Under the pieces are notes generated by a model. It ran no database searches, was not told where the DNA came from, and worked only from the letters and a program-made list of their open reading frames with translations. This document shows, piece after piece, positions 11,827 to 39,784 of a DNA stretch of 64,000 nt (its first letter is position 1; each line of letters starts with the position of its first letter). A program made the position numbers and the translations under genes. Location: positions 93,848 through 157,847 of the forward strand of contig DATKWU010000009.1 of assembly GCA_035529375.1 (NCBI GenBank), in the 5' to 3' direction. The DNA comes from Patescibacteria group bacterium (lineage in GTDB: Bacteria > Patescibacteriota > Microgenomatia > PFEM01 > JAHIFH01).

Positions 11827-11827
11827 T

Positions 11828-22668: not shown

Positions 22669-22729
22669 TGATAAACTATTCTTGGAAAGATAAATTTATA
22701 AGTTCGGAAATCATCAACAAGTGCCAGCC
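22669..22729 (+). repeat. S-repeat copy 1 (TGATAAACTATTCTTGGAAAGATAAATTTATAAGTTCGGAAATCATCAACAAGTGCCAGCC)
   Basis: About 60 bp and nearly identical to the copy at 38895-38954. It ends 17 bp before the likely HIT start codon. The ORF track's TTG start at 22668 translates this repeat. Confidence 0.75.
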
Positions 22730-22745
22730 AAGAACCAGAATATTT

Positions 22746-23207
22746 ATGAAACACACAAAGAAAGATCGACCAAATTTTCTATTTGAAACTAAACATTGGA
22801 AAGTCTATTTAAATCCAGATCAGTATTATTTAGGCAGGTCTGTCGTGGTAGCAAAAAGAGATGTAGGCAGCCTTTCTGACTTAACCAAAGATGAATGGTT
22901 AGATTTTACGGAACTTATTAAAAAAATTGAAGCTACCTATAAAAAATCATTTGGCGCAACAATGTTTAACTGGACTTGTCTCATGAACAATGCATATAAG
23001 AACGATCCTCCCAACCCCCATGTTCACTGGCATCTTCTCCCCAGATATAAAAAAGCCGTAACGTTTAAAGGAATTGATTTTGGAGACAATGAATTCGGCA
23101 GTCATTATGCTCGAAAAATTGACCGGGCTGTACCAGATGAGGTTTTCAGTGAAATTGTCAAAGTAATAAAAAAATTCTCAAGACAATATAGGACCAAAAA
23201 GGCCTAG
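22746..23207 (+). CDS. HIT family hydrolase
   Basis: Histidine triad HVHWHLLPRY near the C-terminus. Start re-assigned to the ATG at 22746, because the upstream part of the listed ORF translates the S repeat. The TAG stop at 23205-23207 lies inside R-repeat copy C. Confidence 0.7.
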   Translation: MKHTKKDRPNFLFETKHWKVYLNPDQYYLGRSVVVAKRDVGSLSDLTKDEWLDFTELIKKIEATYKKSFGATMFNWTCLMNNAYKNDPPNPHVHWHLLPRYKKAVTFKGIDFGDNEFGSHYARKIDRAVPDEVFSEIVKVIKKFSRQYRTKKA

Positions 23208-23223
23208 ACCGACCTACTCAGCC
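23201..23223 (+). repeat. R-repeat copy C (GGCCTAGACCGACCTACTCAGCC)
   Basis: Family match that overlaps the HIT gene's stop codon (ccTAGacc). Confidence 0.75.
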
Positions 23224-23257
23224 AACCCCAACCACCCGTCACTTCAATAATCTTCTC

Positions 23258-23920
23258 TTAATCACAATTCTTTGACTTTTTAAAACCAGCCTTCAAAGCT
23301 TCTTTTTCAGTGCAAAACCATTGTTCCCCTAAACTTTTTTCAACAATTGTCTGTTCATATTGACGACAACCCGGGAAATGATAAATTTTATCACCTGAGT
23401 TTTTGTCAATGTTTCCTTTGATTTGGCAATCTGGGTCTTCAGGATTTTCCTTTTGGTAGCATCGGGGGCTAAAAACACCCTTCTCCTCTTCCTGGGCCAA
23501 ATGAGCGGTTGTTTTTAAAACTTCTCTTTGGGAATTTTTATCACTGGTGTAATAACCCCAGCCTTCCTTTAAAACCTCTTCATTTATAAATTGATTGCCT
23601 ACATAAACCAAGGCGATGATTCGACCCCAATTATCAACAACAGGTTCTCGAAGAATAACTCTTTTTTCCATTACTAAAGACTCAAGTTTTTCCTTAGCTT
23701 CCTGCCCACCACAAAAATCGACCTCTGGGGCGTTAAGGCCAGCCAATCTTACTCGCTGGCTCGTTTCCAAAACAAAAGTGTCTCCGTCAAGAACATTAAC
23801 CACCAATGATCCCGATTCTGATCCGGCTGTTTTTTGCCACAAGTAATAATTCAATAATAAGGAAGGAATTAAGATCAAAAAACCAAGCCAAACTCGCCAA
23901 TTCTTCACCATCTTTCTCAT
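23258..23920 (-). CDS. Thermonuclease (staphylococcal-nuclease-like), secreted
   Basis: 220 aa. N-terminal TM/signal segment, SNase motifs (DGDTF...RVRLAGLNAPE), and a C-terminal Cys-containing extension (YHFPGCRQYE...WFCTEKEALKAGF). Confidence 0.8.
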   Translation of the reverse strand: MRKMVKNWRVWLGFLILIPSLLLNYYLWQKTAGSESGSLVVNVLDGDTFVLETSQRVRLAGLNAPEVDFCGGQEAKEKLESLVMEKRVILREPVVDNWGRIIALVYVGNQFINEEVLKEGWGYYTSDKNSQREVLKTTAHLAQEEEKGVFSPRCYQKENPEDPDCQIKGNIDKNSGDKIYHFPGCRQYEQTIVEKSLGEQWFCTEKEALKAGFKKSKNCD

Positions 23921-23977
23921 AGATATCTATCTTACGTTAAAACAAAATTACTCACAATCTAGAAGACATGTTTTTAC

Positions 23978-24066
23978 TGTCTCATTTGTCTCATCTAGCT
24001 TTGAGATGGTAAACTAGGAAAGACTAAGTTATAAGGACTGAAAGATCCCAGACCAGCATTCACAAC
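23978..24066 (+). repeat. Composite T-R element, copy D (tandem TGTCTCAT-TTGTCTCAT, then GTTATAAGG, then a degenerate R: CCCAGACCAGCATTCACAAC)
   Basis: T motif at 23978-23994, GTTATAAGG at 24028-24036 and a degenerate R at 24046-24066. It lies between the 5' end of the nuclease gene and the methyltransferase start. Confidence 0.6.
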
Positions 24067-24088
24067 AAATTTAGAATTTTTCTAGAAT

Positions 24089-24718
24089 ATGACCATGAAC
24101 TACTCTAATTGGGAAAAATATTATCAGAAAACTCCTTTAGAAAAGATTCCTTGGCAAAAAACTCAAGCTAGTTTTTTCACTGAAGTAATAGAATCAGGCA
24201 AAATTAATCCCTGTTCAACCTTGGATTTAGGCTGTGGCACCGGAGCAAAATCAATTTACCTTGCCAAAAAAGGCTTTAAGGTCACCGGAGTTGATATTTC
24301 TAAAACAGCTATCGAGCATGCAAAAGCAAATGCCGAAAAGGCAAAAGTCAAAGTCGAATTTATAGTCGCCGACGTGACTGATTTGAGTTTTCTTGATGAT
24401 AAAAAATTTGACTTTGTTTTGGATTGGGCTAATCTTCACGGTATTCCTAAAAACAAACGAAAGAAGTATGTTGATGGAATTATTAGACACACCAAAAAAG
24501 GAAGTAAATTACTTTTAAGATGTTTTAGCAAGCGCGGGATTGAAAAAGAATTTACTCACCGTCCCATGGGGACAATCTATCTGTTTTCTAAGAAAGATAT
24601 TGAAGAGCTTTTCGAAAAGCATTTTAGAATTTTAGAAACTCATAAAAGCAAACCATTTGTGAGAAAAGAAAAAGAACCTCCGGCAAAGTGGCTTGATGAA
24701 TATTTAATGGAGAAATAG
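24089..24718 (+). CDS. Class I SAM-dependent methyltransferase (TPMT/TehB-like)
   Basis: 209 aa. SAM motif I LDLGCGTGAKSIYLA and post-I acidic VDIS. Confidence 0.75.
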   Translation: MTMNYSNWEKYYQKTPLEKIPWQKTQASFFTEVIESGKINPCSTLDLGCGTGAKSIYLAKKGFKVTGVDISKTAIEHAKANAEKAKVKVEFIVADVTDLSFLDDKKFDFVLDWANLHGIPKNKRKKYVDGIIRHTKKGSKLLLRCFSKRGIEKEFTHRPMGTIYLFSKKDIEELFEKHFRILETHKSKPFVRKEKEPPAKWLDEYLMEK

Positions 24719-24752
24719 AAAATTTTTAAACTTCTTTTGGTATAATTCAATT

Positions 24753-25220
24753 ATGATAACTATTCGGAAAGCAACAATTAACGATTTACCAGCTATAAAA
24801 GAATTGAATAAACAAATCTTCATAAATAATCCTAAATATGACAATGATGCTGTTGAAGACTTTGCTCATACTCCACAGGGAGAAAAGTATTTTAAAGAAG
24901 CAATCAGAAGTAAAAAAGGGTGTTTTTTAATCGCTGAAGAAAATGAACAGATGATCGGATATGCAAACGGTGAAGAAAAAGAAGCTTCATATCGCAAAAG
25001 CAAGTATTTTGAAATTGATAACTTAGGAGTGATACTTGAAAAAAAGAAACAAGGAATAGGTAAAAAGATATTAAATGCCATAACAAACTGGGCAAAGAAA
25101 AAAGGTTTTCAAAAAATATACCTCAATTGTTATGTGAAGAACGAAAAGGCTTTGAATTTTTATCGTAGTAATGGGTATTCAGAAATAGACATTTGTCTAG
25201 AAAAGAAAATTAGTGAGTGA
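24753..25220 (+). CDS. GNAT family N-acetyltransferase
   Basis: 155 aa. Acetyl-CoA-binding motif A (KKKQGIGKKILNAI...KKKGF). Confidence 0.8.
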   Translation: MITIRKATINDLPAIKELNKQIFINNPKYDNDAVEDFAHTPQGEKYFKEAIRSKKGCFLIAEENEQMIGYANGEEKEASYRKSKYFEIDNLGVILEKKKQGIGKKILNAITNWAKKKGFQKIYLNCYVKNEKALNFYRSNGYSEIDICLEKKISE

Positions 25221-25277
25221 ACCCTAACCTCCTCCACGAGGTAAGGAAGGAATTTATTTATTCTGTAATATTTCCTA

Positions 25278-25622
25278 TTATTTACCTGTTATACAACTCT
25301 CGTCAATTTCAGAAGTGCGGCAAATCAACAACTCACCATCTTCTTCAATAATGTTTCCAATAAGATCACTGCCGCATTTGCACATTTCAATATCTCTTCC
25401 TCCATGTCCATCATCACAAAATTCCTTTCTAACCTTGCCTGGTTTAAAGACGGTATCACAACCAATACAAACCCGTCGGTATCCTTGATCGAAAGCCTCT
25501 CTTAAAGTTAAACCATTTCCATCTGCTGAATTGTCTTCAAACTTGGAATCTTTTTCGCTCATTTTTAGGTAATTAAAAACTGCCCCTTCGGACAGTGAAT
25601 GTATTATAACACCTTTCTTCAA
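25278..25622 (-). CDS. Hypothetical Cys-rich small protein
   Basis: 114 aa. Several CxxC-like pairs (CIGCD, CKCGSD). Confidence 0.4.
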   Translation of the reverse strand: MKKGVIIHSLSEGAVFNYLKMSEKDSKFEDNSADGNGLTLREAFDQGYRRVCIGCDTVFKPGKVRKEFCDDGHGGRDIEMCKCGSDLIGNIIEEDGELLICRTSEIDESCITGK

Positions 25623-25652
25623 ATAAATAAATAAAATAGCTCAAGTGATTTT

Positions 25653-25725
25653 TGATAAACTAACTCGGGAATAAGATATAATATCAACTAATTTTGAGGT
25701 TCGGAAATCATCCACGAGTCCCAGC
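25653..25725 (+). repeat. S-repeat copy 2 (TGATAAAC...TATAAT...GGTTCGGAAATCATCCACGAGTCCCAGC)
   Basis: Shares the TGATAAAC head and the 27-nt GTTCGGAAATCATC-N-ACGA-N-TCCCAGC tail with the other S copies. Lies 235 bp upstream of the GH130 gene. Confidence 0.6.
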
Positions 25726-25961
25726 AAGATTGGACACAAAGCGACCGTAAACTCTCAAATAGGTCGATAACACTTGCTAAACCTCTACTTTGTTTTTAGG
25801 AGTTTCGGACCGTATCCTTGTTATTTAGGAGATTTTGTTTTTGTTATAATTTCCTTTCTAACCATAAACCGAGGCTCAACAGATTGTATTGGTCTTTTTT
25901 GATACAATGTCAGTGTCCTCATGCTCCTTTTGAAATAACGTAAGTTTAAAAGAGTTTAATA

Positions 25962-26987
25962 ATGTTAAAAATTAAAGACGAGGGAATAATTTTAGAGAAA
26001 ACAAATCTGGAATTTGAAAATAAGGCCGTTTTGAACCCGGCCTGCATCCAAGTGGATGACATTACCCATATGTTCTATCGGGCAGTTAACCATAATGATA
26101 TTTCTTCCATAGGTTACTGCCAGCTGAAAGATAATAAAGTTGTAAAAAGACTTAAGGAGCCAGTTCTTTTCCCAGAATATGATTACGAGAAAAAGGGCGT
26201 AGAAGATCCAAAGATTACTTTTTTAGAGGGAACATACTATCTTTTCTACACTGCCTATAATGGTAAAAATGCTCTCATTGCCTACGCCACAAGCAAGGAT
26301 CTTGTTCATTTCACCAAACAAGGCCTTATCTCGCCGAAAATCTCCTACGATGAAGCGGAGGACATTTTTCGCGAGTCAAAAGTCAGAGAGAGATACACTA
26401 TGTTTGAGATGTTCTACAAAGAAAGAGGAGGGAAGGACATTTTGCTATGGGAAAAAGACGCCTCTCTTTTTTCCCAAAAATTCAACCATAAATTTGCTCT
26501 TCTCCACCGCATTCTGCCGGGAATCCAAATAATTTACTTTAACAATTTCTCCGAACTTACTGCTGTTCGCTGGCACCATCATCTTAAGAACTTAGGTGAT
26601 TTTATCGTGCTTGATCCTCTTTTTTGGTTTGAAAACCGCAATGTAGGCGGCGGTTGTCCCCCAATTGAAACAGAAGACGGATGGCTTATTATCTATCATG
26701 CGGTGGAGGATACCCCTTTTGGGAAAATCTATCATGCTGCTGCTGCCCTTCTTGATCTCAAAAACCCTCTAAAAGTTTTGGGGCGATTAATAGAACCCTT
26801 GTTTTCCCCAAAGGCTCCCTGGGAAAAAAGTGGCGTTACGAATAATGTCGTCTTTCCTACCGGAGCAATAGTAAGAGATAAAAGGCTTTATATTTATTAT
26901 GGGGCTGCCGATAAGTTAATCGCCGCGAAATCTATTAACCTCACAGAGTTATTGACTAAACTCAAGAAAAGTCCCCTAAAGCTATGA
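25962..26987 (+). CDS. GH130-family glycoside hydrolase / beta-mannoside phosphorylase-like
   Basis: 341 aa. Conserved N-terminal signature of the family (NPACIQ..., EDPKI) and a beta-propeller-like repeat pattern. The stop overlaps the start of the downstream glycosyltransferase (ATGA). Confidence 0.6.
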   Translation: MLKIKDEGIILEKTNLEFENKAVLNPACIQVDDITHMFYRAVNHNDISSIGYCQLKDNKVVKRLKEPVLFPEYDYEKKGVEDPKITFLEGTYYLFYTAYNGKNALIAYATSKDLVHFTKQGLISPKISYDEAEDIFRESKVRERYTMFEMFYKERGGKDILLWEKDASLFSQKFNHKFALLHRILPGIQIIYFNNFSELTAVRWHHHLKNLGDFIVLDPLFWFENRNVGGGCPPIETEDGWLIIYHAVEDTPFGKIYHAAAALLDLKNPLKVLGRLIEPLFSPKAPWEKSGVTNNVVFPTGAIVRDKRLYIYYGAADKLIAAKSINLTELLTKLKKSPLKL

Positions 26988-29200
26988 GCACTAACCAGCA
27001 AAGTAAATCTTGGATAGTCTGTCTTTCCACCTTCCCGCCACGACAATGCGGTATAGCCACCTTTACTGCTGACCTTACTAATGCTATTGACCAAATATTT
27101 GGATCGTCGGTTAAGTCAAAGATTGTCGCGATGAATCTTACTGAAATAAGTCATTTACCCTATTCTGACAAAGTAATTTTCCAGATAAGCCAGCCTCGTG
27201 AAGAGGACTATGTTAACGCTGCCTACAAACTCAACCATCTCGAAAAGGTAAGACTTGTCAACATTCAACATGAATTCGGTATTTTCGGAGGGAAATATGG
27301 TTCACACCTGCTTCTACTTCTGAAAAAACTTCAGAAACCGGTTGTTACCACATTTCACACCGTTCTTCCCGCTCCAGACGAAAAAATGCGCAACGTTGTT
27401 CAAACTATAATGAAATATTCTAAAGGGATAATCGTTATGACTAATTATTCAAAGGAACTTCTCAAGAAGGATTACGGATTAGATCCTGACCGCATCCAAG
27501 TCATTCCTCACGGAATTCATCGCGTTTCCTATAGAACCAGTGAACATGCCAAGTCTGTTTTCGGCTTTTCTGGCAAACTAATCCTTTCAACCTTTGGGTT
27601 ACTTAATCCCAGCAAGGGAATCGAGTATGTAATCGAGGCCCTACCACCGGTAGTAGAAAAGTTCCCTAATGTTCGATTCCTTGTCGCCGGGGTCACTCAT
27701 CCTAATATTCTGGAACAGGAAGGAGAAAACTACCGTAATTTTCTTATTAAAAAAGTTTATGAACTTGGCCTAAACGACTACGTTCTATTTTATAATACCT
27801 ATTTTAATATAAATAAACTCCTTAGATTTTTAGAGTCTACCGATGTCTATCTTTCCCCCTCCTTAAACCCAAAACAAACTGTCTCCGGCACTTTGTCTTA
27901 TGCCCTTGGCAGCGGTCGTCCGATCATATCCACAGCCTTTGCCCAAGCCAAACAAGACATCACGAGTGAGGTCGGCATATTGATTGACTTCAAAAACCCG
28001 CAGGCTTTTACCAATGCCATCATTAAATTAATAAGTAATAATGAATTATGTTTACAGATGGGTAAAAACGCTTATTTCCGCACCAGGCATATGACCTGGG
28101 AAAATGTTGCCCATTCCTACATGAAATATTTCTCGCAATTTGTGCCGGAGCTAACCCTGGGACAAAGAAAAATTCCATCCATAAAACTTGAACATTTGGC
28201 TAAATTGACTGATAATTTTGGCATTATTCAGTTTGCCAAGCTGACCGAACCAGATCTTTCTTCCGGATATACCTTAGATGATAATGCCCGAGCCTTAATC
28301 GCGGCCGCTCTTCATTATAAAAAATTTAGGACTCACTCTGCGCTAAAACTTGCCTCCATATATCTCAACTTTCTTTATCGGGTAGCTAAACCTGATGGTT
28401 ATTTTGATAATTATGTCAATTCAAACCGCGCTATTGATAAGCAAAGAAATGTCCAGGAAAATTCAGAAGATCCCAGTGCCAGGGCCCTATATGCTCTTGC
28501 CTTAGTTTCAACTACCAAACAAATCCCCAAACGCTTTAGAAAACAAGCCCATTCTCTTTTTGAACAAAGTTTCCAGAAAAACATTGCTTTCTCCTCGCCT
28601 CGCGCTATCGCTTTTTACATTAAGGCTCTCAATTGTTTGCTCTCAAAATGGAAAGAACCCAAGACTCTCGCTGTATTAAGGTCTTACTGTGAACAACTCA
28701 TGACTCTATATGAAAAAAGTCACCGGCCGGACTGGGAGTGGTTTGAGCATTATTTAACATATTCAAATGCCATCCTGCCAGAAGCACTCATCCTCGGTTA
28801 CAAAATAACCGGAGAGAGAAGATATCTCGAAGTGTCTGAAAAAACCCTTAACTTCTTAATTAAACATACCTTTAAGGACAGTATCTACATTCCTGTCGGC
28901 CAAAGTGGCTGGTTTCCCAAGGAAGGGATAAGACAGTATTTTGACCAACAGCCCGAAGATGTTGCTGCCACCGTAGAAGTTCTTAACATAATGTTTCAGG
29001 TAACAAACAGGAAGCATTACAAGGAATTAGCGAACATCGCATTTAACTGGTTTCTAGGGGATAATGTTCTTGGGCAGGTTGTATATGATCGGACCACTGG
29101 AGGATGCCATGATGGGATTGGGGAAAAATTTATTAATCTTAACCAGGGTGCCGAATCTACAATCTCTTACCTCTTAGCTCGCCTTTCTTTCGGGGGCTAA
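26984..29200 (+). CDS. GT4-family glycosyltransferase fused to a C-terminal domain of about 350 aa of unknown function
   Basis: 738 aa. The N-terminal 380 aa have GT-B/GT4 features (E-x7-E region, PSLNPKQTVSGTLSYALGSGRPIIST). The C-terminal half is alpha-helical, with a possible six-hairpin glycosidase-like fold. Confidence 0.7.
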   Translation: MSTNQQSKSWIVCLSTFPPRQCGIATFTADLTNAIDQIFGSSVKSKIVAMNLTEISHLPYSDKVIFQISQPREEDYVNAAYKLNHLEKVRLVNIQHEFGIFGGKYGSHLLLLLKKLQKPVVTTFHTVLPAPDEKMRNVVQTIMKYSKGIIVMTNYSKELLKKDYGLDPDRIQVIPHGIHRVSYRTSEHAKSVFGFSGKLILSTFGLLNPSKGIEYVIEALPPVVEKFPNVRFLVAGVTHPNILEQEGENYRNFLIKKVYELGLNDYVLFYNTYFNINKLLRFLESTDVYLSPSLNPKQTVSGTLSYALGSGRPIISTAFAQAKQDITSEVGILIDFKNPQAFTNAIIKLISNNELCLQMGKNAYFRTRHMTWENVAHSYMKYFSQFVPELTLGQRKIPSIKLEHLAKLTDNFGIIQFAKLTEPDLSSGYTLDDNARALIAAALHYKKFRTHSALKLASIYLNFLYRVAKPDGYFDNYVNSNRAIDKQRNVQENSEDPSARALYALALVSTTKQIPKRFRKQAHSLFEQSFQKNIAFSSPRAIAFYIKALNCLLSKWKEPKTLAVLRSYCEQLMTLYEKSHRPDWEWFEHYLTYSNAILPEALILGYKITGERRYLEVSEKTLNFLIKHTFKDSIYIPVGQSGWFPKEGIRQYFDQQPEDVAATVEVLNIMFQVTNRKHYKELANIAFNWFLGDNVLGQVVYDRTTGGCHDGIGEKFINLNQGAESTISYLLARLSFGG

Positions 29201-29240
29201 AACCAGCACTTGGGTGTCGAACGAAGCCCTTTTTTTATAC

Positions 29241-29313
29241 TGTCTCATTTGTCTCATTTTTTCTAAAATTAGGTTGAGTTATAAGGATAGAAAATTGCTA
29301 GACCGAGCTGCCC
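29241..29313 (+). repeat. Composite T-R element, copy E
   Basis: T at 29241-29257 (TGTCTCATTTGTCTCAT), GTTATAAGG at 29278-29286, and a degenerate R (GCTAGACCGAGCTGCCC) at 29297-29313. It lies 41 bp after the glycosyltransferase stop. Confidence 0.7.
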
Positions 29314-29370
29314 AAACACATTAAACAAATCTCAAAATTTTATACCATGTGTTTTTGATATACTCTACAT

Positions 29371-29730: not shown

Positions 29731-29822
29731 TATTATCAAAAGCAAGAATAATTATTTGATCAGAAGCTAATATAGTAAGTCCAAATTCAGTTCACGGTTC
29801 GCTGCCAAGCACTTTTTTACAT

Positions 29823-29888
29823 TATCTCATTCGTCTCATTTACCCTTGAGTTATAATGACATGAAGGTTCTAGACCAACCGGCTCAGC
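29823..29888 (+). repeat. Composite T-R element, copy F
   Basis: T-like TATCTCATTCGTCTCAT at 29823-29839, GTTATAATG at 29850-29858, and R (GGTTCTAGACCAACCGGCTCAGC) at 29866-29888. Confidence 0.7.
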
Positions 29889-29901
29889 GAGTCACCCGCT
29901 T

Positions 29902-30633: not shown

Positions 30634-30671
30634 ATCTTCTTATTATAATGATTAGAAGTATTGAATTACAG

Positions 30672-30708
30672 GTTATAATAAAAAAGGCTCTAGACCAGCC
30701 CGCTTAGC
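30672..30708 (+). repeat. R-repeat copy G (GTTATAATA + GGCTCTAGACCAGCCCGCTTAGC)
   Basis: Family match (CTTAGC variant) lying between the divergent HExxH gene and the HDAC-like gene. Confidence 0.7.
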
Positions 30709-30710
30709 AA

Positions 30711-31547
30711 ATGAATATTTTATTTAATAGGAAATTCCTAAATTATAATCAAAGCAGTAATTATGAAGGTGCATATAGAGTAAGGGGTTTTGAGAACCAA
30801 TACCCGGACATAACCGTAGATTTTGATCCTGTTTCATACATTATAGAAACCCATTCTAAAAGATACTTTGAAAAGATAAAAAAATCTTGCGAGAAGGAGA
30901 TTGAACTGGTTGGGCTACATCTTACTAAAGAATGCTTTGAAGCAGCAATATTAGCGGTTGGGCTCACTATTAAAGCTTCAGAAAAGGGAGACTTTGCCGT
31001 TGTTAGACCTCCAGGACATCATGCCGGTAGAGAGAAGGCATCAGGCTTTTGTTTATTTAATAACATTGCAATCTCAGCCAATAAACTTCTGGGCGAAGGG
31101 AAAAGAATAGGTCTATTAGATATAGATGGTCATCACGGAGACGGCACACAAGCACTATTGGAAAACCAAGAAAATGTTTTCTTTTATTCAATCCATGAAT
31201 CAGGGGTTTTTCCTGGAACGGGAATAGATTCCAAGAACAACTACTATAATATTCCTCTCCAGCCACCCATTTCCGAGGAGGTATATCTAGAGGCTTTGGA
31301 AGATTGTATTCAAAAATTAACGATATTCAACCCAGATATTTTAGGAGTTTCAGTGGGTTTCGATACTTTTGAAAAAGACAAACTTCTTGATTTTAAGCTC
31401 AGTTGCAACACATATAGGCAAATCGGATATGAATTAAAACTAAATTTCACAAACATCTATGCAGTGCTAGAAGGAGGTTACCACGATAAAATCAAAGATT
31501 GCGCCGAAAGTTTTGTGGTTGGAGTAAATTCTGCTATTAACCAATAG
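30711..31547 (+). CDS. Histone deacetylase / acetoin-utilisation AcuC family hydrolase
   Basis: 278 aa. HDAC motifs PPGHHA, GFCLFNNIA, DIDGHHGDGTQ. Confidence 0.8.
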   Translation: MNILFNRKFLNYNQSSNYEGAYRVRGFENQYPDITVDFDPVSYIIETHSKRYFEKIKKSCEKEIELVGLHLTKECFEAAILAVGLTIKASEKGDFAVVRPPGHHAGREKASGFCLFNNIAISANKLLGEGKRIGLLDIDGHHGDGTQALLENQENVFFYSIHESGVFPGTGIDSKNNYYNIPLQPPISEEVYLEALEDCIQKLTIFNPDILGVSVGFDTFEKDKLLDFKLSCNTYRQIGYELKLNFTNIYAVLEGGYHDKIKDCAESFVVGVNSAINQ

Positions 31548-31586: not shown

Positions 31587-32165
31587 ATGAAAACTAAAAA
31601 AGTCAACTGTATTATTATTCATGGATGTCCTTGGGATATTAAAAAGGCAATGGATGCCAAAACTAGAACTTATGATAAACGTTGGATTCCTTGGCTAAAA
31701 AAAGAATTAACTTCTCGAGGAATAAAAACCAAAGCTCCCCTAATGCCTAAACCCTGGTATCCAGACTACCAAGCCTTTAAAAAGAAATTCGAAAGATATG
31801 AAGTCACCAATAACTCTATTCTAATTGGTCATAGCTGTAGTTGTGCCTTCTTAGTTCGCTGGTTAGGAGAAACAAAAAGGAAAGTAAAAAAACTTATCTT
31901 GGTTGCTCCTTGGAAAATTCCGGATAAGAATAATCAATTAGAAAAATTACTCTATGAATACCCTATTGATAAAAAGATTAAGGCAAGAGTAAAAGAAATT
32001 GTCATGTTTACCGCCGATAACGAGGAAAAAGATGGTAAAAAGAGTTTAAAAATTTTCCACAAAGTCTTAGGAGGAAAAATAATTGAACTTAAAGGAAGAG
32101 GTCATTACACCCTAGAATATATGAAAAATCAAGAATTTCCTGAATTATTAAAGGAAATAGTTTAA
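31587..32165 (+). CDS. Alpha/beta hydrolase (YdeN/RBBP9-like serine hydrolase)
   Basis: 192 aa. Nucleophile elbow G-H-S-C-S and an IIHG start typical of the family. Confidence 0.55.
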   Translation: MKTKKVNCIIIHGCPWDIKKAMDAKTRTYDKRWIPWLKKELTSRGIKTKAPLMPKPWYPDYQAFKKKFERYEVTNNSILIGHSCSCAFLVRWLGETKRKVKKLILVAPWKIPDKNNQLEKLLYEYPIDKKIKARVKEIVMFTADNEEKDGKKSLKIFHKVLGGKIIELKGRGHYTLEYMKNQEFPELLKEIV

Positions 32166-32203
32166 GTTATAAGGATAAAAAGAGCCTAGACTGGCCTGCT
32201 CAG
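32166..32203 (+). repeat. R-repeat copy H (GTTATAAGG + GAGCCTAGACTGGCCTGCTCAG)
   Basis: Begins 1 bp after the hydrolase stop codon. Sits between the hydrolase and the 3' end of obg. Confidence 0.7.
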
Positions 32204-32230
32204 TAACGAACCACTCGCTATCGCTCGGGT

Positions 32231-33244
32231 TCATCTCTTCGCCGAGGCAAAAGATTTTAAAATAAGGGTTCTTAGTTTTCCCAAACTATCCCGATCATGA
32301 ATAGAAACGGGTAATATTTGTTTTTTCAGTTTTTTTAATGCCTTAAACTTTTGTTTTACTTCTTTCTCTGATTTTAAATCTGTTTTGGTAAGAAGAATAA
32401 TTTCCGGTATCTTTAATAATTTTGGATTATAACTTTTTAGTTCGTTCCTGATTTGTTGATAGTTTTTTTCGGGCTCTTTAAGTTCACAAGAAAGACAATG
32501 AAATAAGAGTGAAACTTTTTCAATATGTTTTAAAAATTTGATCCCTAAACCTTTTCCTTTAGAAGCTCCTTCTATAAGTCCTGGAATATCAGCAATAATT
32601 TTACCATCCAATTCTCCCAAGTTAGGCTCAAGAGTAGTAAAAGGGTAATCGCCGATTTTTGGATTAGCGTTTGTTATCTCTTTAAGCAAACTGCTTTTAC
32701 CGGCATTAGGAAAGCCAATAAGCCCATAATCAGCTACAAGCTTAAGATTAATATATAAATCTCTTTCCTGACCTTTAAAACCACTTTGGGCATACATTGG
32801 CGTCACATTTCTAGAAGAACGATATTCCCAGTTGCCTTTACCTCCCCAGCCTCCCTGACACAAAAGAAGACGACAGTCTTTGTCAGTCACTTCAAAAACT
32901 TCTTTAGAATTCTTATCAGTAATAATAGTCCCAATTGGAAGTTTAACTTCTAAATCCTCAGCAAACTTGCCGTCTTTTTTATTTAACATCCCATGCTGAC
33001 CATTTTTTGCTTCGATTTTGACGCTTTTTGAAAGATTAGAAAGAGCGTAAATATCTGAAGTAGAGGTAATAAAAATACTGCCACCCTTTCCCCCATTGCC
33101 TCCATCTGGACCTCTTCTTCCTTTATAAAAAGAAACTTTTCCATTTCCGCCATCCCCCGCCTTAAACTTAATATTTATTTCTGTAATTAACATTGTTTTC
33201 TTCATTATATCAGGCAGGTTGAAATCTGTGAATTCAACCTTCAA
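32231..33244 (-). CDS. obg: GTPase Obg/CgtA (no TGS extension)
   Basis: 337 aa. Obg fold with Gly-rich repeats (GDGGNGKVSF, GGNGGKGGSIF) and a G domain (GLIGFPNAGKSSLL, DIPGLIEGA, TKTD). Confidence 0.85.
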   Translation of the reverse strand: MKVEFTDFNLPDIMKKTMLITEINIKFKAGDGGNGKVSFYKGRRGPDGGNGGKGGSIFITSTSDIYALSNLSKSVKIEAKNGQHGMLNKKDGKFAEDLEVKLPIGTIITDKNSKEVFEVTDKDCRLLLCQGGWGGKGNWEYRSSRNVTPMYAQSGFKGQERDLYINLKLVADYGLIGFPNAGKSSLLKEITNANPKIGDYPFTTLEPNLGELDGKIIADIPGLIEGASKGKGLGIKFLKHIEKVSLLFHCLSCELKEPEKNYQQIRNELKSYNPKLLKIPEIILLTKTDLKSEKEVKQKFKALKKLKKQILPVSIHDRDSLGKLRTLILKSFASAKR

Positions 33245-33935: not shown

Positions 33936-33940
33936 TATAT

Positions 33941-34246
33941 ATGGATAATCGAGCTAAAGTATTAGATATTGCCATGAACTTGAACCGTATAGGTAATTGG
34001 GCCGCCGATGATTATTCCGGTAAAAAAGAAAGAATAAAGACTTTTTTGAGAAATACTTCTTCTTATATTCAAGATTTAGACAAAAATTCCTTACCTAGTG
34101 CCTTTATGAGTACTTTTAATAATTTTGTGAAGGAATATCACTCTCTTGAAAAAGAGGGTATCAAAAAACCCAAGAATCCGGTTTTTTGGGCAGAGGATAT
34201 GATGACTTGGGGAAATATTCTCACCCACCGCTCCAAACTTATTTAA
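33941..34246 (+). CDS. Hypothetical protein
   Basis: 101 aa ORF, 5 bp after the previous one. No motif. Confidence 0.4.
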   Translation: MDNRAKVLDIAMNLNRIGNWAADDYSGKKERIKTFLRNTSSYIQDLDKNSLPSAFMSTFNNFVKEYHSLEKEGIKKPKNPVFWAEDMMTWGNILTHRSKLI

Positions 34247-34290
34247 AATAAAATCTAGACTTTTTGGACTCGAATATAGGGCTAGAATGG

Positions 34291-34311
34291 GGCTAGACCG
34301 GCCTGCTCAAC
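34291..34311 (+). repeat. R-repeat copy I (GGCTAGACCGGCCTGCTCAAC, preceded by the partial duplicate GGGCTAGAATGG)
   Basis: Family match with an adjacent truncated duplicate. Sits between the small hypothetical genes and the 3' end of typA. Confidence 0.65.
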
Positions 34312-34353
34312 ATAAGAATTTTAACTTTAGAATAAATTTTAAAAAAGGCAGAT

Positions 34354-36152
34354 CTATTTAAGACCTTTTGCTTGGCGTTTGGCTTCATTTAAATCCAAAA
34401 TTATTTTTCTGATTCTTACTGCCTTGGGAGTAACGTCAACCAGCTCCGTATTATCAATATAATCCAGGGCGGCATCCAAATCCATAATTTTTGGTGTATT
34501 TAAATGTCTGGTAACCCCCTCACCTTTGGAACGCATATTGGATAATTGTTTTTCTTTGCAGACATTAACAGACAAATCACCCAGCCGGGAGTTTTGACCA
34601 ACTACCTGGCCTTTATAAACTTCCACATTTTGACCGATAAATAATTCTCCCTGATCCTGAACATTAGTTAAACCATAAATCCTGGTCAGACTTGACTCAT
34701 GGGCAACCAAGGAGCCATGCTCTCTTTCTTTCAAGGTGCCTTTTTGGGGTATATATTTATAAAACACGGTATTTAAAATACCTAAGCCATGGGTGTCGAT
34801 CATAAATTTAGTCCGGTAACCGAATAGTCCCTGAGTAGGAATAATAAATTCAAGATAAACGATATTGTTATTGGTTTGCATTTGTCTTATTTCGCCAAAA
34901 CGGCTGTTTAATTTTTGGATAACCGCACCAGAATATTCTTCCGGTACTTCGATAAAAACCTCATCACAAGGAATCATTTTTTGGCCGCCAATATTTTTCA
35001 CAATAACTTGCGGTTGGGAAACTTGCAAAGAAAAACCTTCACGGCGAAGGCGTTCGATAAAAATCGCCAGATGTAGTTCGCCTCTGCCGGAAACAATCCA
35101 GCCGCCTTGTGGGCTATCTTCAATACGCAAGGCCACATCATTATCCAGTTCTTTATATAATCTTTCCCTGATTTGACGGGAGGTCGTGTATAAACCTTCC
35201 CTGCCGCCAAATGGTGAAGAGTTAACTTCGAAAGTCATCTTTACTGTCGGTTCTTCTATTTGTAAAAGAGGCAGTGCTTGAGGTTTTAGAACGTCAGTAA
35301 TTGTCTCGCCGATAGTGATATCAGGAATCCCGGCAATGGCGACAATTTCTCCGGCTTGAGCCTGGGGTGTTTCCACTTGTTCCAAACCCTGAAATGTCAT
35401 TAAAGAAGTTAAACAATATTTTTTCATTATCCCTATGCGATTAATATGCATCACTTCCTGGTTAGCTTTTAGACTGCCATTATAAATTCTACCCCGGGCC
35501 ACTCGGCCTTTAAAATTATCCCGGCTAATAGAAGTAACCAGCATTTGTAAGGGTTTGCTCAAGTCAGCTTTCGGAGCAGGCACCTGTTTAATAATTTCTT
35601 CAAACAAAATCGAAATATCAGTCATTTTACTAAGATCCGGGTCCAGTCCGGCTTTACCAAATTTTGCCGATGCATAAACAATGGGAAACTCAGCCGTTTG
35701 CTCATCAACCCCTAAGTTAATAAACAAATCAAAAGTTTTGTTTAAAGCTTTACTGATATTGACATTAGATTGATCAATTTTATTGATGACCACAATAATT
35801 TTATGTTTTAACTCCAAAGCTTTTTTCAAAACAAATCTGGTTTGAGGCATGGGGCCGTCATGAGCATCAATTAACAAAAGCGAGCCGTCAGCCATTTGCA
35901 AAACCCGTTCGACTTCACCCCCGAAGTCGGCGTGTCCCGGCGTATCAATAATATTAATTTTGACACCACGCCACATAATCGAGGCATTTTTAGAAAAAAT
36001 AGTGATGCCTCGTTCGCGCTCCAATTCGTTACTGTCCATAATACAGACGGTATCGGTCATTTCTTTGCCAAGATGGGTGGCAGATTGGCGAAGTAAAGCA
36101 TCCACTAAAGTGGTTTTACCGTGATCTACATGAGCGATAATGGCTATATTGC
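34354..36152 (-). CDS. typA: Translational GTPase TypA/BipA
   Basis: The listed ORF has an implausible 58-aa N-terminal extension. The real start is likely the ATG at 36150-36152, which has a GGAG Shine-Dalgarno. 599 aa, beginning MEIRNIAIIAHVDHGKTTLVD. Confidence 0.9.
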
Positions 36153-36441
36153 GAATTTCCATAAAATTAACTCCTATTAATAAAAAATACCTATTTCTAG
36201 GCATTTCAACCCGACGCCTATTATACTTCATTTCCGTGTCAAAATAAATTATCTGGATATTTGGCAAACTGTGGAAGGGATTGCTCTTATTTTTATCGAC
36301 CAAAATTCTGCGAGGACGAATCAAAATTAGAATCACCTATCCCTAGGCTCTAATAAGATGTATAATTAAGAGTATTAACCACATAAAAATATTTCTTCTC
36401 CCTTAAGATTTATTTTGTGCTTTATTAGTAAAAACTTTTTT

Positions 36442-37602
36442 ATGAACCAAATTACCACCTTTGACGTTTTGATTGTCTACTCTAAAAGACTCGCCATCAG
36501 TGCCAATTCTGTATCCGAAGACGTTACTGCCCCATTTGCCAAAGGGTCTGATAGTGAAAGCTACAACCTAGTTTATGGCTACTTTTTGAAAACCTGCCGA
36601 AAAAACAATTTAAAAGCGGCTTTTACAACATCTGCTGATATTGTGGGTGCAGGAAAATGTCGAAGTTATTGGCTCTTCGAAAATGAAACTTGGATAAAGA
36701 TCCGAAAAACAGGCTTTTCAAAACTGATTTTTGACAAATTCTCTCCGACGAGTAAAAGCATAAAAATAAATCGTAATTTACTTTTTTCTTCAGGAAGAAT
36801 CAGACCTTTTAATAATCCCTGCCTTTTTAATCTTTGTTTTGACAAACAAAAAACTTACAACAAGCTCCATAAATTTTCTATTCCCACAGTAACTATTGAT
36901 GATCGTACCAGAAAAGGAGTTGATAAAGAGTGTAAGGCGCTAAAAGAGAAAATAGCCAGACATCCGTACAAAGACGATTTTTCCGAGGAAATTATAATGA
37001 AAAACAGATTCGGAGCTGGCGGGAGAAATGTCTACAAATTTAAAGCCAATCAATCCAATATGATGATGGCATCAATGAAAAAGCATAAAAAAATATCATT
37101 TGTTATTCAACCATTTGTAAAATTTGATAAAGGCTTCAGTTATCAAAACTCTTCAGTTTCAACCGATATCAGGTTAATATACCTCGGAAAAAAGATTGTT
37201 CAAACATACATAAGAATGGCTAAGAAAGGAGACTTTAGATGTAATGAGCACAAAGGTGGATTACTAAAATATATACCAAAGAATGAAGTGCCTTCGAAAG
37301 TAGTAGCAGTTTCTAGAAATATTGCTAAGATTTTAGATAAAAGATCTTCTCTATTTGCTCTTGACTTTATTATTAGCAATAACGGTAATGTCTATCTTCT
37401 CGAAGCGAATACCGGACCAGGATTGGATTGGAATTTATCAATCAAGGAAAACGAAATTGAAGCCAAGAAACTAATAAGGATTATTATAAAAGAAATAGTT
37501 AGACGGATTAGCTCACCAAAAAATACTTCTAAAAGAAAAGCTGTAGTCGCTACAGTAAAGACTCCAATGATTAGCAAGCACCCAGTATCTCCAATAACCT
37601 GA
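36442..37602 (+). CDS. ATP-grasp family protein (RimK/GSH-synthetase-like)
   Basis: The C-terminal region (FALDFIISNNGNVYLLEANTGPG) matches the ATP-grasp large-domain signature. Start taken at the internal ATG (MNQITTF). Confidence 0.55.
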   Translation: MNQITTFDVLIVYSKRLAISANSVSEDVTAPFAKGSDSESYNLVYGYFLKTCRKNNLKAAFTTSADIVGAGKCRSYWLFENETWIKIRKTGFSKLIFDKFSPTSKSIKINRNLLFSSGRIRPFNNPCLFNLCFDKQKTYNKLHKFSIPTVTIDDRTRKGVDKECKALKEKIARHPYKDDFSEEIIMKNRFGAGGRNVYKFKANQSNMMMASMKKHKKISFVIQPFVKFDKGFSYQNSSVSTDIRLIYLGKKIVQTYIRMAKKGDFRCNEHKGGLLKYIPKNEVPSKVVAVSRNIAKILDKRSSLFALDFIISNNGNVYLLEANTGPGLDWNLSIKENEIEAKKLIRIIIKEIVRRISSPKNTSKRKAVVATVKTPMISKHPVSPIT

Positions 37603-37647
37603 ATTATTTAATTTTTTTAGTAATTTAAAATTTCCCCTTTTTCATTC

Positions 37648-37735
37648 TGTTTCATTTGTCTCATTTAGCCTCGGAATGATACAATTAGAGTGTTTAGTTA
37701 TAAGGATAGAAAGGTTCTAGACCGATCCGCTCAGC
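37648..37735 (+). repeat. Composite T-R element, copy J
   Basis: T at 37648-37664 (TGTTTCATTTGTCTCAT), GTTATAAGG at 37697-37705, and R (GGTTCTAGACCGATCCGCTCAGC) at 37713-37735. Confidence 0.75.
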
Positions 37736-37768
37736 TTGAAAACTTAATGTGTAATTATAAGGTTTGAT

Positions 37769-38314
37769 ATGTCAAAAATTCTAATTAAAGTTGATAAGGA
37801 TTTATATCTTAAGACATGGAGTTTAAAAAACTCTGCCGAGTTATTTGCGCTTACTGATAAAAACAGGGCATATTTACAGCCTTGGTTACCATGGGTTCCA
37901 AATGTTAAAACTGAAGCAGATTCAAAAAAGTTTATTCGTGAATCACTTCAAGAAATGAAAGACGATAAGGGAATAGAAATGGGAATTTGGTTAGCAGATA
38001 AGTTAGTTGGATGTATCGGCTTACACGGATTAAGTAAACCAAATCGTAGGGCAAGCCTGGGATATTGGTTAAGTAAGAATCAACAAAAGAAAGGAATAAT
38101 GACACGGTCGGTCAAGGCATTGGTTGATTATTCCTTTAAGATACTTAATCTTAATCGTATTGGCTTAGAAGCTTCCACTGAAAATGTTTCAAGTTGTGCT
38201 ATCGCCAAAAAATTGGGCTTTGTTAAAGAAGGCGTTGTTCGACAATTCGAGTTTGTTGACGGGAGATTTTTGGATTGCCAAGTGTGCAGTGTGTTAAAGT
38301 CTGAATGGAAATAA
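37769..38314 (+). CDS. GNAT acetyltransferase (RimJ/RimL-like)
   Basis: 181 aa. Motif A QQKKGIMTRSVKALVDY and an N-terminal arrangement typical of ribosomal-protein acetyltransferases. Confidence 0.75.
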   Translation: MSKILIKVDKDLYLKTWSLKNSAELFALTDKNRAYLQPWLPWVPNVKTEADSKKFIRESLQEMKDDKGIEMGIWLADKLVGCIGLHGLSKPNRRASLGYWLSKNQQKKGIMTRSVKALVDYSFKILNLNRIGLEASTENVSSCAIAKKLGFVKEGVVRQFEFVDGRFLDCQVCSVLKSEWK

Positions 38315-38334
38315 AACTTAACACTGTACTAGTA

Positions 38335-38372
38335 GTTATAGGATCGGAAGGTCCTAGACCACACTGCTCAGC
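38335..38372 (+). repeat. R-repeat copy K (GTTATAGGA + GGTCCTAGACCACACTGCTCAGC)
   Basis: Family match, 21 bp after the GNAT stop. Confidence 0.7.
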
Positions 38373-38422
38373 TTAAAATTTTAAATCATTGAAATTTTGT
38401 TTGAAAAAAGAGAATTAGTTTT

Positions 38423-38806
38423 TTATTTTGGATTGATTATCGATTTAGTTCCTATTTTCTCTCTTAAAAGTTCTTCAAGATCTTCCACAGTAATTGGTTT
38501 ATCAATATAAAAATCAACCAAACCTTCAAGTATCGGATGAACTATATTAGTTTCTAAACCTATTTTTATTTCTGGGTTTCCAGCTCTAATTTCTTGTAAT
38601 AAACCTTTTAAGCCAGCCATAGGTCTTAAAGTTCCACTATGAATGATTACTGCATTTTTTCCTTCGCAGTTTTTTAAAATCTCTTCGTCTTCAATTGAAT
38701 CTAATTTGGTAATTTGAAATTTTCCACTTTGTTCAAGACATTTAAAATGGTCTCCCCACACACTTATATGATCTTGATCTGCCCAAAGCAATTCCATTTC
38801 TTTCAT
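38423..38806 (-). CDS. Hypothetical protein
   Basis: 127 aa ORF. No motif. Confidence 0.4.
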   Translation of the reverse strand: MKEMELLWADQDHISVWGDHFKCLEQSGKFQITKLDSIEDEEILKNCEGKNAVIIHSGTLRPMAGLKGLLQEIRAGNPEIKIGLETNIVHPILEGLVDFYIDKPITVEDLEELLREKIGTKSIINPK

Positions 38807-38894
38807 ACTTGAAATTTTAATATATTATGCCCTATAAGGCAAACTAAACTTTATATTTTAAAAAATTGTAAATTATAGAAATTTAGCTGTCATT

Positions 38895-38954
38895 TGATAA
38901 ACTATTCTTGGAAAGATAAATTTATAAGTTCGGAAATCATCAACGACTCCCAGC
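38895..38954 (+). repeat. S-repeat copy 3
   Basis: Near-identical to copy 1 (TGATAAACTATTCTTGGAAAGATAAATTTATAAGTTCGGAAATCATCAACGACTCCCAGC). Lies 74 bp upstream of the gene at 39028. Confidence 0.75.
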
Positions 38955-39027
38955 TAGAAAAAGACCTATTTGTTGGGCTTTTTTGTTTGTGGTTTTGTTA
39001 AAAGGCGTGTTTTGGTAAAATAAAAAC

Positions 39028-39657
39028 ATGGATGAAATCAGCAAAGACGAATTTCGGGTAAAGCAGATAGATGTAAAAGCCAAAGAAGCAGGCAGGGGAA
39101 GATTAGTTTCTACATATAGACCAGTGGAGATAATGTTTGCTGCGACAGGGAAAGAGCCTACAGACTTAAGAGGAAAAGAGATTCTAAACCTAGGGGCAGG
39201 AAGAACTCATTGGGGTTTTGAGTTAACGAGTAAGTATAAAGTGGTTGCCAAAAAATTTGAAAATTTTGATATTAGTTATGCCGAGCAATCTGGCCCAAGG
39301 AGGTTAGCGGGAAAGATATTTATGGCAGAGTCTATTGGTGATATAAAAAACGAACTACCTTATAGAGATAACTCCTTTGATGTTCTCTGGTGTTCATACG
39401 CTCCTACAAATTGGCAAGAATTTGTAAGGATAACTAAGCCAGGAGGAGAAATTTTTGTTTTAGGAGGAAATTATGACGAAGAATTTACAGAAAGATTAAG
39501 TCATCAGCTTGGCATTCCAGTAACTTGCCAGAAGATAGACGAAAGGAAAATAGATAAATGGGCAAGCCTAGCTGGGCGTCATAGAAACGCCGTGTCGTCT
39601 TTATTAGGTAAAAATGTTCTGGTAGTTAAAAAACCCAAAGAAGAGATTAGAGAGTAG
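39028..39657 (+). CDS. Hypothetical protein, possibly a class I methyltransferase
   Basis: 209 aa. Weak SAM-binding-like segment ILNLGAGRTHWGFE and an acidic D/E after the beta2 strand. Confidence 0.4.
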   Translation: MDEISKDEFRVKQIDVKAKEAGRGRLVSTYRPVEIMFAATGKEPTDLRGKEILNLGAGRTHWGFELTSKYKVVAKKFENFDISYAEQSGPRRLAGKIFMAESIGDIKNELPYRDNSFDVLWCSYAPTNWQEFVRITKPGGEIFVLGGNYDEEFTERLSHQLGIPVTCQKIDERKIDKWASLAGRHRNAVSSLLGKNVLVVKKPKEEIRE

Positions 39658-39723
39658 AAATTTAAACTAGTTATAACTTCGTCCACAAGGAAAACCTAAA
39701 TCTGTAGAAATTTGATTGACTTC

Positions 39724-39784
39724 TGATAAACTAAGGCAGGATGGTCCAAGTTGATGGTTCGGAAATCATCAACGACTCCCAGCC
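39724..39784 (+). repeat. S-repeat copy 4 (TGATAAACTAAGG...GTTGATGGTTCGGAAATCATCAACGACTCCCAGCC)
   Basis: Contains a 7-bp stem GTTGATG/CATCAAC around GTTCGGAAAT. Ends 11 bp before the likely GNAT start. Confidence 0.7.

Follow-up and report, generated by a model that had tools for sequence, protein, structure and literature searches.

Islands that insert repeatedly at one integration site are known to build tandem arrays (PMC7192596). In those described at tRNA genes (Islander/TIGER; PMC4383910, PMC7192596), the tRNA stands at the head, every far boundary carries a co-oriented copy of the tRNA 3' end, and the internal sites are the boundaries of the units. Integration at tRNA genes is usually performed by tyrosine integrases, according to Islander. 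Here we analyze a locus of this known kind, a tRNA-anchored island array with att remnants, in 64,000 nt of the genome of an uncultured bacterium of the Candidate Phyla Radiation (CPR) (Patescibacteria group bacterium, GCA_035529375.1, contig DATKWU010000009.1, positions 93,848 to 157,847; hereafter the window), where a tRNA-Gln(CUG) gene is followed by the copies of two repeats, called S and R. Unlike in the described arrays, the recombinase is a large serine recombinase (LSR), the repeat is a diverged mimic of the tRNA that also encodes the tail of the recombinase, and the units in the window have 0.5-5 kb and lack an integrase. S is very probably the element-borne P' arm of the attachment site of LSRs that target the 3' ends of tRNA-Gln genes, and its copies in the window are most likely arms left behind. 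Coordinates refer to the window, L-numbers designate loci from other genomes or metagenomes, and P-numbers designate LSR proteins.

The LSRs of phages (Listeria A118/LI integrase, Bxb1, phiC31; PMC3783163) have the same Resolvase, Recombinase, and zinc ribbon domains with a long coiled coil, and their sites show, as here, a short core and one type of arm that is 5 bp longer. A sequence search of the PDB linked our LSR only distantly to the A118 integrase (E about 1e-3). Our LSRs differ from those of the phages in that they target the 3' ends of tRNA genes, that their open reading frame (ORF) spans attP, with the last ~34 residues changing on integration, and that the arrays seem to involve the reuse of hybrid sites. 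Integration also cuts a gene of the element at attP in the archaeal tyrosine integrases of the SSV1 type, where the integrase gene is split about mid-way and inactivated (PMC8371274), and in the immunity system of mycobacteriophage BPs, where the C-terminus of the repressor changes (PMC4557955), and as a result the protein made differs between the free and the integrated state. These two systems rely on tyrosine recombinases, whereas the recombinase here is of the serine type and exchanges nothing but its tail, either for tRNA-antisense codons or for a near-immediate stop.

Integrons resemble the present arrays in having co-oriented, mostly single-gene units that are each followed by a recombination site, and in the type of genes they carry (GNAT, methyltransferase, HIT, and small unclassified genes). 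Unlike integrons, the array has no IntI, neither the R''/L''-L'/R' hairpin nor the GTTRRRY core of attC, and is anchored at a tRNA gene. Another point of comparison is the filamentous phage phiRSM, whose recombinase has the 3' end of a tRNA-Ser gene as attB. This enzyme (cited in PMC7192596) belongs to the serine family, as here, but it is a small enzyme of the resolvase type that lacks the large C-terminal DNA-binding domains, and there is no read-across of its att site. The unusual traits of our system are an LSR instead of a tyrosine recombinase at a tRNA 3' end, an ORF spanning attP, a tRNA-mimic arm with a 5-bp offset, and dense integron-like arrays. Literature searches returned no description of this LSR family or mechanism in CPR bacteria, and a survey of genomic islands in Patescibacteria mentions no integrase, recombinase, or tRNA (PMC12455944).

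The initial annotation had placed four copies of S on the plus strand of the window, and all of them were located there. A profile made from ~89 homologues matched exactly these four copies in the 64 kb, with E-values of 1e-15 to 5e-19, and nothing else. The unit is longer than first described, with 85-95 nt (Table 1). The head TGATAAACTA common to the copies is seen, S1 and S3 are indeed nearly identical, and the pattern of the common 27-nt tail, searched with up to 3 mismatches, gives 4 matches against 0.00 expected in shuffled sequences. The distances between the end of the tail and the following plus-strand ATG are 17, 236, 73, and 12 nt, near the earlier figures.

Judging from its relatives in other genomes, S is the C-terminal tail, i.e. 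the last ~30-34 codons, of a family of LSRs from the Microgenomates (CPR). The search pattern GTTCGGAAATCATCNACNANTNCC retrieved 15 loci from a set with one genome per species and 108 from a metagenome collection, nearly all of them in Microgenomates (Curtiss-, Roizman-, and Daviesbacteria), with a few chance matches in coding regions of unrelated bacteria. Once aligned, the copies vary with a three-base rhythm that fits the opposite strand. The latter reads (W)/LGVVDDFRT, where the slash marks the junction here and below, followed by a variable linker, (L/I)VYQKS-x-x-FL, a few residues, and a stop. The head of S is made of the codons V-Y-Q-K, and its tail of the codons L-G-V-V-D-D-F-R-T. The frame is open for at least 24 codons past the L codon in 83 of the 96 distinct copies. 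In the block YPELVYQKS, the entropy is 0.53, 0.33, and 1.18 at the three codon positions, and the codons departing from the consensus include 181 synonymous and 83 nonsynonymous ones, figures that are biased towards conservation because the sample was picked by a peptide pattern. The peptide past the ~27-bp half-site seems to be under selection at the protein level, in which case the tail would have some function.

The upstream continuation of the frame identifies the protein. In L117 and L052 the frame runs upstream for 400-500 codons, into a protein starting with MKINTVLFSRVSTREQ. That of L117 has the domains Resolvase, Recombinase, and Zn_ribbon_recom (Pfam), and is therefore an LSR. The S frame also enters full LSRs in L127 and L130, and a second recombinase, of 608 aa, in L141. 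When the L117 protein was searched in the window with tblastn, only its residues 492-526 matched, at the four S copies. The minus-strand frame of S2 is shifted by a length difference of 13 nt instead of 12 nt. A viral origin of S was considered and rejected, given that the contigs of IMG/VR show no match to the S pattern.

A few observations on these frames and loci are worth recording. In the AlphaFold model of the S-tailed LSR P0019 (mean pLDDT, i.e. predicted local distance difference test, of 80.6), the tail forms three short helices (493-501, 505-508, and 512-526) with pLDDT about 60-80; it was built with very few tail sequences and is not used in the argument. Among the 13 S frames that are truncated early, 6 stop at a TGA where the others have a conserved Trp codon, TGG (RTFD-TGA-V… instead of RTFDWV…). 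Frames with the early TGA are found among L052, in which S is fused to an LSR, L042, L078, L079, and L013. They may reflect plain TGG to TGA decay or hint at read-through or recoding of TGA. Typical S copies, some of them beside a tRNA-Gln, occur in metagenome-assembled genomes titled 'uncultured Gammaproteobacteria bacterium' (L001, L003, L005, and L014), and that of L003 is nearly identical to S3 of the window. These taxonomic labels are probably wrong.

The LSR of L117 has 705 homologues at E <= 1e-30, and we sorted the tails of the best 120. The proteins are conserved down to …NGFEVVAxRAKDGNW and then separate into three groups. At least 68 of the best 120 have tails encoded by tRNA antisense, of the form L[PRG]x[LMR]DSN[QPH]…IQSPLSYH or similar, and 6-8 have S tails. 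The remaining ones stop after 2-5 residues (WLRG-stop, WLPG-stop, WLRD-stop) because the T-stem CTAGG of tRNA-Gln(CUG) gives a TAG stop. The Trp codon of the LSR, TGG, is the CCA of the tRNA in antisense. In L124, L140, and L141, a tRNA-Gln read in antisense supplies the last ~20 codons of the LSR, and in L142 the 3' end of the LSR gene overlaps the antisense of a tRNA-Gln inside which the contig ends. Target switching inside the family seems likely.

Several of these loci contain the far end of the inserted DNA. In L124, an S copy with the orientation of the tRNA closes the island on its far side, at a distance of 8.5 kb, and the cargo in between consists of two helicase-type genes, an HTH (helix-turn-helix) protein, small ORFs, and the LSR. 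L141 has the same layout, with S in tRNA orientation at the far end of the first island. This S is also the in-frame tail of the second, 608-aa recombinase, which belongs to an older neighbouring element. In L128, the LSR (tail WLRGSV-stop) is fused at CAGC/CA to an R repeat, and S lies at the far end of an island encoding a cyclic-oligonucleotide-based antiphage signaling system (CBASS).

As for the cargo, we noted UvrD-like and AAA_11/AAA_12+PLD helicase genes in L124 (3077-8027), a CBASS set with SMODS, SAVED, Cap2-like E1/E2, and JAB in L128 (1189-6095), an HNH protein with a 969-aa RelA/SpoT protein in L127 (4079-7757), and, assigned by eye from the translations, a 688-aa primase-polymerase-like protein with a terminase-small-subunit-like ORF in L117 (4349-8035). 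Some LSRs have other tails, WQG..ESNPR..FWR… in P0046, P0066, and P0071, and WLGRRDSNPRM.APEA.ALPLG.SP in P0083, P0089, P0090, and P0093. They resemble the antisense of tRNAs other than Gln, possibly tRNA-Trp and another one. In 7 loci S is preceded by a tRNA-Trp of the same strand.

The exchange can be placed to within a few bases. Among 90 distinct S copies the information content remains at 1.3-2.0 bits through CCCAGC, drops from 1.37 to 0.31 bits one base past it, and is then ~0.1 bits. The sequences of L002 and L054 match perfectly over 600 nt, to the end of CCCAGC, and have nothing in common after it. The two right flanks of L002 and L054 recur with 99% identity in L033 and L058, where they are joined at the same base to different S variants (~70% identical). 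This abrupt loss of conservation and the swapping of flanks at CCCAGC indicate a site-specific crossover point. The motif CAGC is common to the junctions of S with the LSR, of the tRNA with the LSR, of S with the flank, and of the tRNA with the flank (Table 1), i.e. attP, attB, attL, and attR share a short core where the exchange occurs. In the tRNA, the core CAGC comprises the discriminator G73 and the next C, and CAGC(CA) comprises G73 and the CCA. Which dinucleotide within CAGC is exchanged we can only infer.

These junctions do not suit the idea that S copies are LSR pseudogenes decayed at random by ordinary deletion, which is hardly credible in spite of weak traces of the preceding LSR codons in some right flanks (e.g. 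FEAK… from TTAGCCTCA), since decay is not expected to give the same end-point to the base in ~90 copies or to produce both identical S with different flanks and different S with identical flanks.

The initial annotation also noted in the tail a likeness to the 3' half of a tRNA, as left by integration into a tRNA gene, and this is supported: the tRNA is tRNA-Gln, the core is CAGC(CA), and the reading frame of the LSR crosses the site. An alignment with MAFFT places the 3' halves of three tRNA-Gln, five S, and three R in register from GGTTC to CAGC(CA), and the only length difference is a 5-nt insertion present in every S copy. Adjacent to the core, S has ~27 nt (GGTTCGGAAATCATCAAC.A.T.CCAGC) that reproduce, in degenerate form, the T-arm and the 3' strand of the acceptor stem of the tRNA. 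S is not itself a tRNA gene or pseudogene, as ARAGORN and Rfam find nothing at S and the likeness is limited to the T-arm/acceptor 3' part, plus the 5 extra bases. From GGTTCG to the end of the core there are 28 nt in S, and 23 nt in R and in four tRNA-Gln genes. In the structural model of serine integrases, the motif of the zinc ribbon domain (ZD) occupies bp 16-24 of the half-site in attP and bp 11-19 in attB (PMC3783163), and S has accordingly the aspect of a P-type half-site, with the distal motif 5 bp further out. Given the 5-nt extra spacing of S and the 5-bp shift of the ZD motif in the model, the tail of S can be read as a P'-type half-site, and the T-arm/acceptor of the tRNA and R as B'-type half-sites. 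By analogy, GGTTCG would be the motif contacted by the ZD.

R can be aligned, with no gap, to the final 26 nt of the tRNA-Gln of the window, where 18 of the 26 positions are identical, and it ends with CAGC(CA). It resembles an att arm of the B type, similar to a tRNA, more than a terminator. The suggestion that S and R are diverged versions of one site is thus borne out: both align to the 3' half of tRNA-Gln, end with CAGC, and are co-oriented, and an LSR is fused to R. They are, however, not the 5' and 3' boundaries of the same cassettes, as had been proposed, because both mark the tRNA-distal kind of boundary. The LSR-fused R of L128 carries the motif ACTGTCTCGTTTGTCTCATTT, which also precedes several R copies of the window. 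A second short motif, (C)nTTTTTATACTGTCTCATTTGTCTCATTT, occurs ~50 nt upstream of several R (23964-23996, 29227-29259, 29809-29841, 37634-37666, and 41424-41456), with a weak match at 54501-54533. It is also found upstream of the LSR-fused R of L128, and the R unit is therefore probably ~90 nt long.

In the window, ARAGORN and Rfam identify only two tRNAs, a tRNA-Glu (14510-14584, minus strand) and the tRNA-Gln (Table 1). The latter heads 19 plus-strand cores, 15 of R and 4 of S, which extend from 19898 to 47584 in a 29-kb array; the rest of the 64-kb window has no R or S core. Hence, the locus is a tandem array of islands headed by a tRNA and punctuated by co-oriented copies of its 3' end, and L019, L100, and L052 have the same layout. 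No tRNA accompanies S more often than tRNA-Gln, which is present in 23 of 79 S-bearing loci; S invariably lies downstream of it, and the two share a strand in 19 of these 23. S copies are co-oriented in all 24 loci with 2-4 copies, a few of which are duplicates of one another, and so are R and S (24 of 24). The locus downstream of tRNA-Gln is hypervariable: positions 1-738 of L100, a metagenome contig, match 17900-18637 of the window over the gene on the left and the tRNA-Gln (88.6% nucleotide identity), divergence is complete right after the tRNA, and beyond it L100 has wholly different small genes punctuated by one R and four S.

Table 1. Attachment-site features of the window, and junction sequences (slash, crossover) from this and other loci.
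Feature	Coordinates	Strand	Remarks
tRNA-Gln(CUG)	18563..18636	+	ARAGORN, Rfam; attB-type anchor; 3' end ...GGTTCGAATCCTAGCCCCGCAGC/CA
R	19851..19898	+	apparent B-type arm, like the tRNA-Gln 3' half, ending CAGC
R	21904..21941	+	
S1	22640..22728	+	read as P'-type att arm; minus strand LALVDDFRTYKFIFPRIVYQKSMKFLHFCTS-stop; core CAGC 22725-22728
R	23186..23225	+	
R, diverged	24025..24073	+	
S2	25631..25725	+	read as P'-type att arm; minus strand LGLVDDFRTSKLVDIISYSR, then frameshift; core CAGC 25722-25725
R	29275..29319	+	
R	29847..29894	+	
R	30672..30715	+	
R	32163..32208	+	
R	34272..34318	+	
R	37694..37741	+	
R	38334..38378	+	
S3	38869..38954	+	read as P'-type att arm; minus strand LGVVDDFRTYKFIFPRIVYQMTAKFL-stop; core CAGC 38951-38954
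S4	39694..39783	+	read as P'-type att arm; minus strand LGVVDDFRTINLDHPALVYQKSIKFLQI-stop; core CAGC/CA
R	40328..40373	+	…GGTTCTAGACCGATCCGCTTAGC/CA
R	41495..41541	+	…GGGCCTAGACCGGCCTGCTCAGC/CA
R	46696..46735	+	
Weakest R-like copy, last core of the array	47546..47584	+	
Junction tRNA/LSR, tRNA orientation			…GGTTCGAATCCATGTCCCGCAGC/CAATTTCC…
Junction S/flank, tRNA orientation			…GGTTCGGAAGTCATCAACCAGAGCCAGC/TGTGAG…
Junction S/LSR, tRNA orientation			…GTTCGGAAATCATCAACGACTCCCAGC/CAATTTCC…
Unoccupied tRNA, L052			…CCGCAGC/TTCTG
Unoccupied tRNA, L100			…CCCGCAGC/AAAAAC
tRNA junction of the window			…CCCCGCAGC/CAAGATGG

Other observations concern the composition of the array and its surroundings. 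The genes flanking it (1-18500 and 49300-64000) are nearly all on the minus strand and the cumulative GC skew falls steadily there; inside (18600-48600), genes are mostly on the plus strand, the skew is flat, and the GC content is lower (down to 0.29 at 20-22 kb). This contrast is consistent with inserted DNA. A HIT gene (22746-23207) lies just to the right of S1. The 119-aa ORF at 29371-29730 matches two PHROG families of no assigned function, and an identical gene in L132 is marked HIT/DcpS_C, which makes it a second HIT-like gene in the array. A scan of seven unannotated ORFs of the array against PHROGs gave one family of no assigned function.

We propose the following mechanism. The frame of the LSR spans its own crossover site: the conserved body ends in ...G-N-W at TGG, which is CCA in antisense, and S provides the ~34 codons that follow. 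Integration would swap the partners within CAGC. The body of the integrated LSR would then continue into antisense codons of the tRNA or of R, the latter being a putative mimic of the tRNA-Gln 3' half with B-type spacing, and S would stay at the far end of the inserted DNA, adjoining whatever lay downstream. Repeated insertions would stack co-oriented S and R cores behind the tRNA-Gln. At the level of sequence, the loci described above show the frame crossing its own site, the LSR joined by integration to antisense codons of tRNA or R with S remaining at the distal end, and co-oriented cores stacked by repeated events. An S-tailed LSR would be either the form made from the free element or, as in L141, that of an older element whose neighbour supplied S. 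In the window, the S copies would be attR-type scars whose recombinase genes have since been lost, and the four of them are presumably inert because no recombinase gene remains nearby.

Several results weigh against this reading. The 64-kb window contains, according to tblastn with the L117 protein, no LSR gene and no LSR fragment other than S, and therefore the events behind its four copies cannot be reconstructed. We found no terminal overlaps, indicative of circularity, in the contigs with LSR-S fusions, and no presence/absence polymorphism of the window array in four other samples, where the array is identical. The array also includes genes of housekeeping type, each bounded by cores: Obg (32231-33244) and BipA/TypA (34354-36336) in the interval between S2 and S3, and FabD (40467-41387) beyond S4. 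This is odd for purely imported DNA. The invariance of GTTCGGAAATCATC in the retrieved copies was partly imposed by the search, and those copies that only the profile found do vary there. Finally, canonical serine integrases recombine only attP with attB. The tandem arrangement of L141 (LSR2/S-island-LSR1/tRNA) implies, under this rule, that a hybrid site was used or that another route was taken. Concerning the housekeeping-type genes, the survey of Patescibacteria reported many translation genes inside predicted islands (PMC12455944). Obg also directly adjoins the LSR-targeted tRNA-Gln in L124 and L126, which are from another Microgenomates lineage.

The small size of the units raises the question of whether S and R are working sites of an integron-like platform, in which an LSR works in trans on single-gene units, inserting and excising them behind the tRNA-Gln. 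Consecutive cores are 1057 bp apart in the median (interquartile range 659-1644), single genes alternate with sites in the arrays of L019 and L100, every site is co-oriented, S, R, and the tRNA share the crossover core of the LSR, and in the relative with 88.6% identity as far as the tRNA, all units beyond it are different ones. We nevertheless regard active cassettes as unlikely. Neither a free cassette circle nor an empty/filled pair was observed, the array of the window is the same in the four other samples, serine integrases are normally restricted to attP and attB, and Obg, BipA, and FabD stand among the units. Furthermore, the methyltransferase gene between S3 and S4, identical and in the same context in the four samples, has homologues in other genomes (56-68% identity) that lie near tRNA-Asn/Asp and are not flanked by S or R. 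Units do not have their own integrase: Pfam reveals no integrase domain in 30 ORFs of the array, and there is no recombinase gene in the window, whereas L124, L128, and L141 have one. The broader proposal in which R/S arrays are an analogue of the integron, a serine-recombinase platform that captures, shuffles, and exports one-gene units, and in which the swap of the LSR tail senses the state of integration and controls directionality, we find equally doubtful.

Two other kinds of mobile element were considered and set aside. An integron proper, suggested by the GNAT, HIT, and methyltransferase cassettes, is rejected because IntI and the features of attC are missing and Obg, BipA, and FabD occur among the units. 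S is not an attC site, as its core is CAGC and three of the four copies show no fold. An end of a miniature inverted-repeat transposable element or of an insertion sequence would have an inverted partner; none is found, and copies are always co-oriented.

S had first been described as a portable promoter with a 5' leader, in which TTGATA was the -35 element, the -10 element lay 17 bp downstream, and the 27-nt tail was a conserved leader RNA. We consider this very unlikely. It is true that the HIT and GNAT genes start 17 and 12 nt past the tail, so that any promoter of their own must lie within or upstream of S, and that TTGATA-N17-TAAATT is present in S1 and S3, with a score of 9/12. Yet, this pair of hexamers is found in these two of the four copies only, being no commoner than expected by chance in such AT-rich DNA. 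Promoter-like matches number 11 against 10.9 in shuffles, and 7 against 3.7, with none in S2 and S4. The supposed -35 region is in the codons V-Y-Q-K of the opposite strand, which vary at third positions. S also lacks a fixed position 5' of co-directional genes: in other genomes the gene to its right shares its strand in 44 loci and has the opposite one in 34, where unrelated genes end just short of S. S adjoins the 5' ends of genes in the window because units are tightly packed and the sequence after the core is whatever followed the target site at insertion.

The comparison with RNA elements points in the same direction. Rfam gave no match at S in the window with either gathering or permissive thresholds, and the folding z-scores of S1 to S4 against shuffles are 0.62, -0.24, 0.24, and -3.52. 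With a significant fold in one of the four copies only, a non-coding RNA or riboswitch was thus rejected. The 7-bp stem reported in S4 is real (-20.3 kcal/mol, z = -3.5), but this T-arm-like hairpin exists in S4 alone among the copies of the window. A long hairpin seen in relatives of S was also discarded, since it is made of the codon runs V-D-D-F and E-I-I-K, which are mutually reverse complementary.

Lastly, the S frames might be free-standing peptides of 30-60 aa homologous to the LSR tail, as an ATG closely precedes a few of them (MLGVVDDFRT in L038, a 43-aa ORF in L033) and gene callers called 13 such ORFs of 34-73 aa; this is most improbable when 16 of 96 copies have a stop within 3 codons upstream of LGVV and no start codon, S3 has a TAG directly ahead of the L codon, and the upstream open stretches are unrelated in sequence and length between copies.

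The reading of S as the P' arm of an LSR attachment site and of R as a mimic of its target has consequences beyond this locus. The LSR family constitutes a natural set of at least 705 serine recombinases that target the 3' end of tRNA-Gln and whose attP and attB can be read from the sequence. It may help in annotating mobile elements of CPR bacteria, whose cargo includes CBASS and helicase-nuclease genes, and be a source of new integrase/att pairs. A gene that runs across its own site, next to a tRNA-like arm offset by 5 bp, would both illustrate and test, in a natural setting, the structural model for the discrimination between attP and attB. It also raises the question of whether the two isoforms of the LSR tail differ in activity. 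For the bacterium itself, the joint interpretation of S, R, and LSR would account for a repeat family and for a 29-kb variable region of its genome, and it would give boundaries of inserted DNA at the level of the base in a group whose mechanisms of gene exchange are essentially undescribed.

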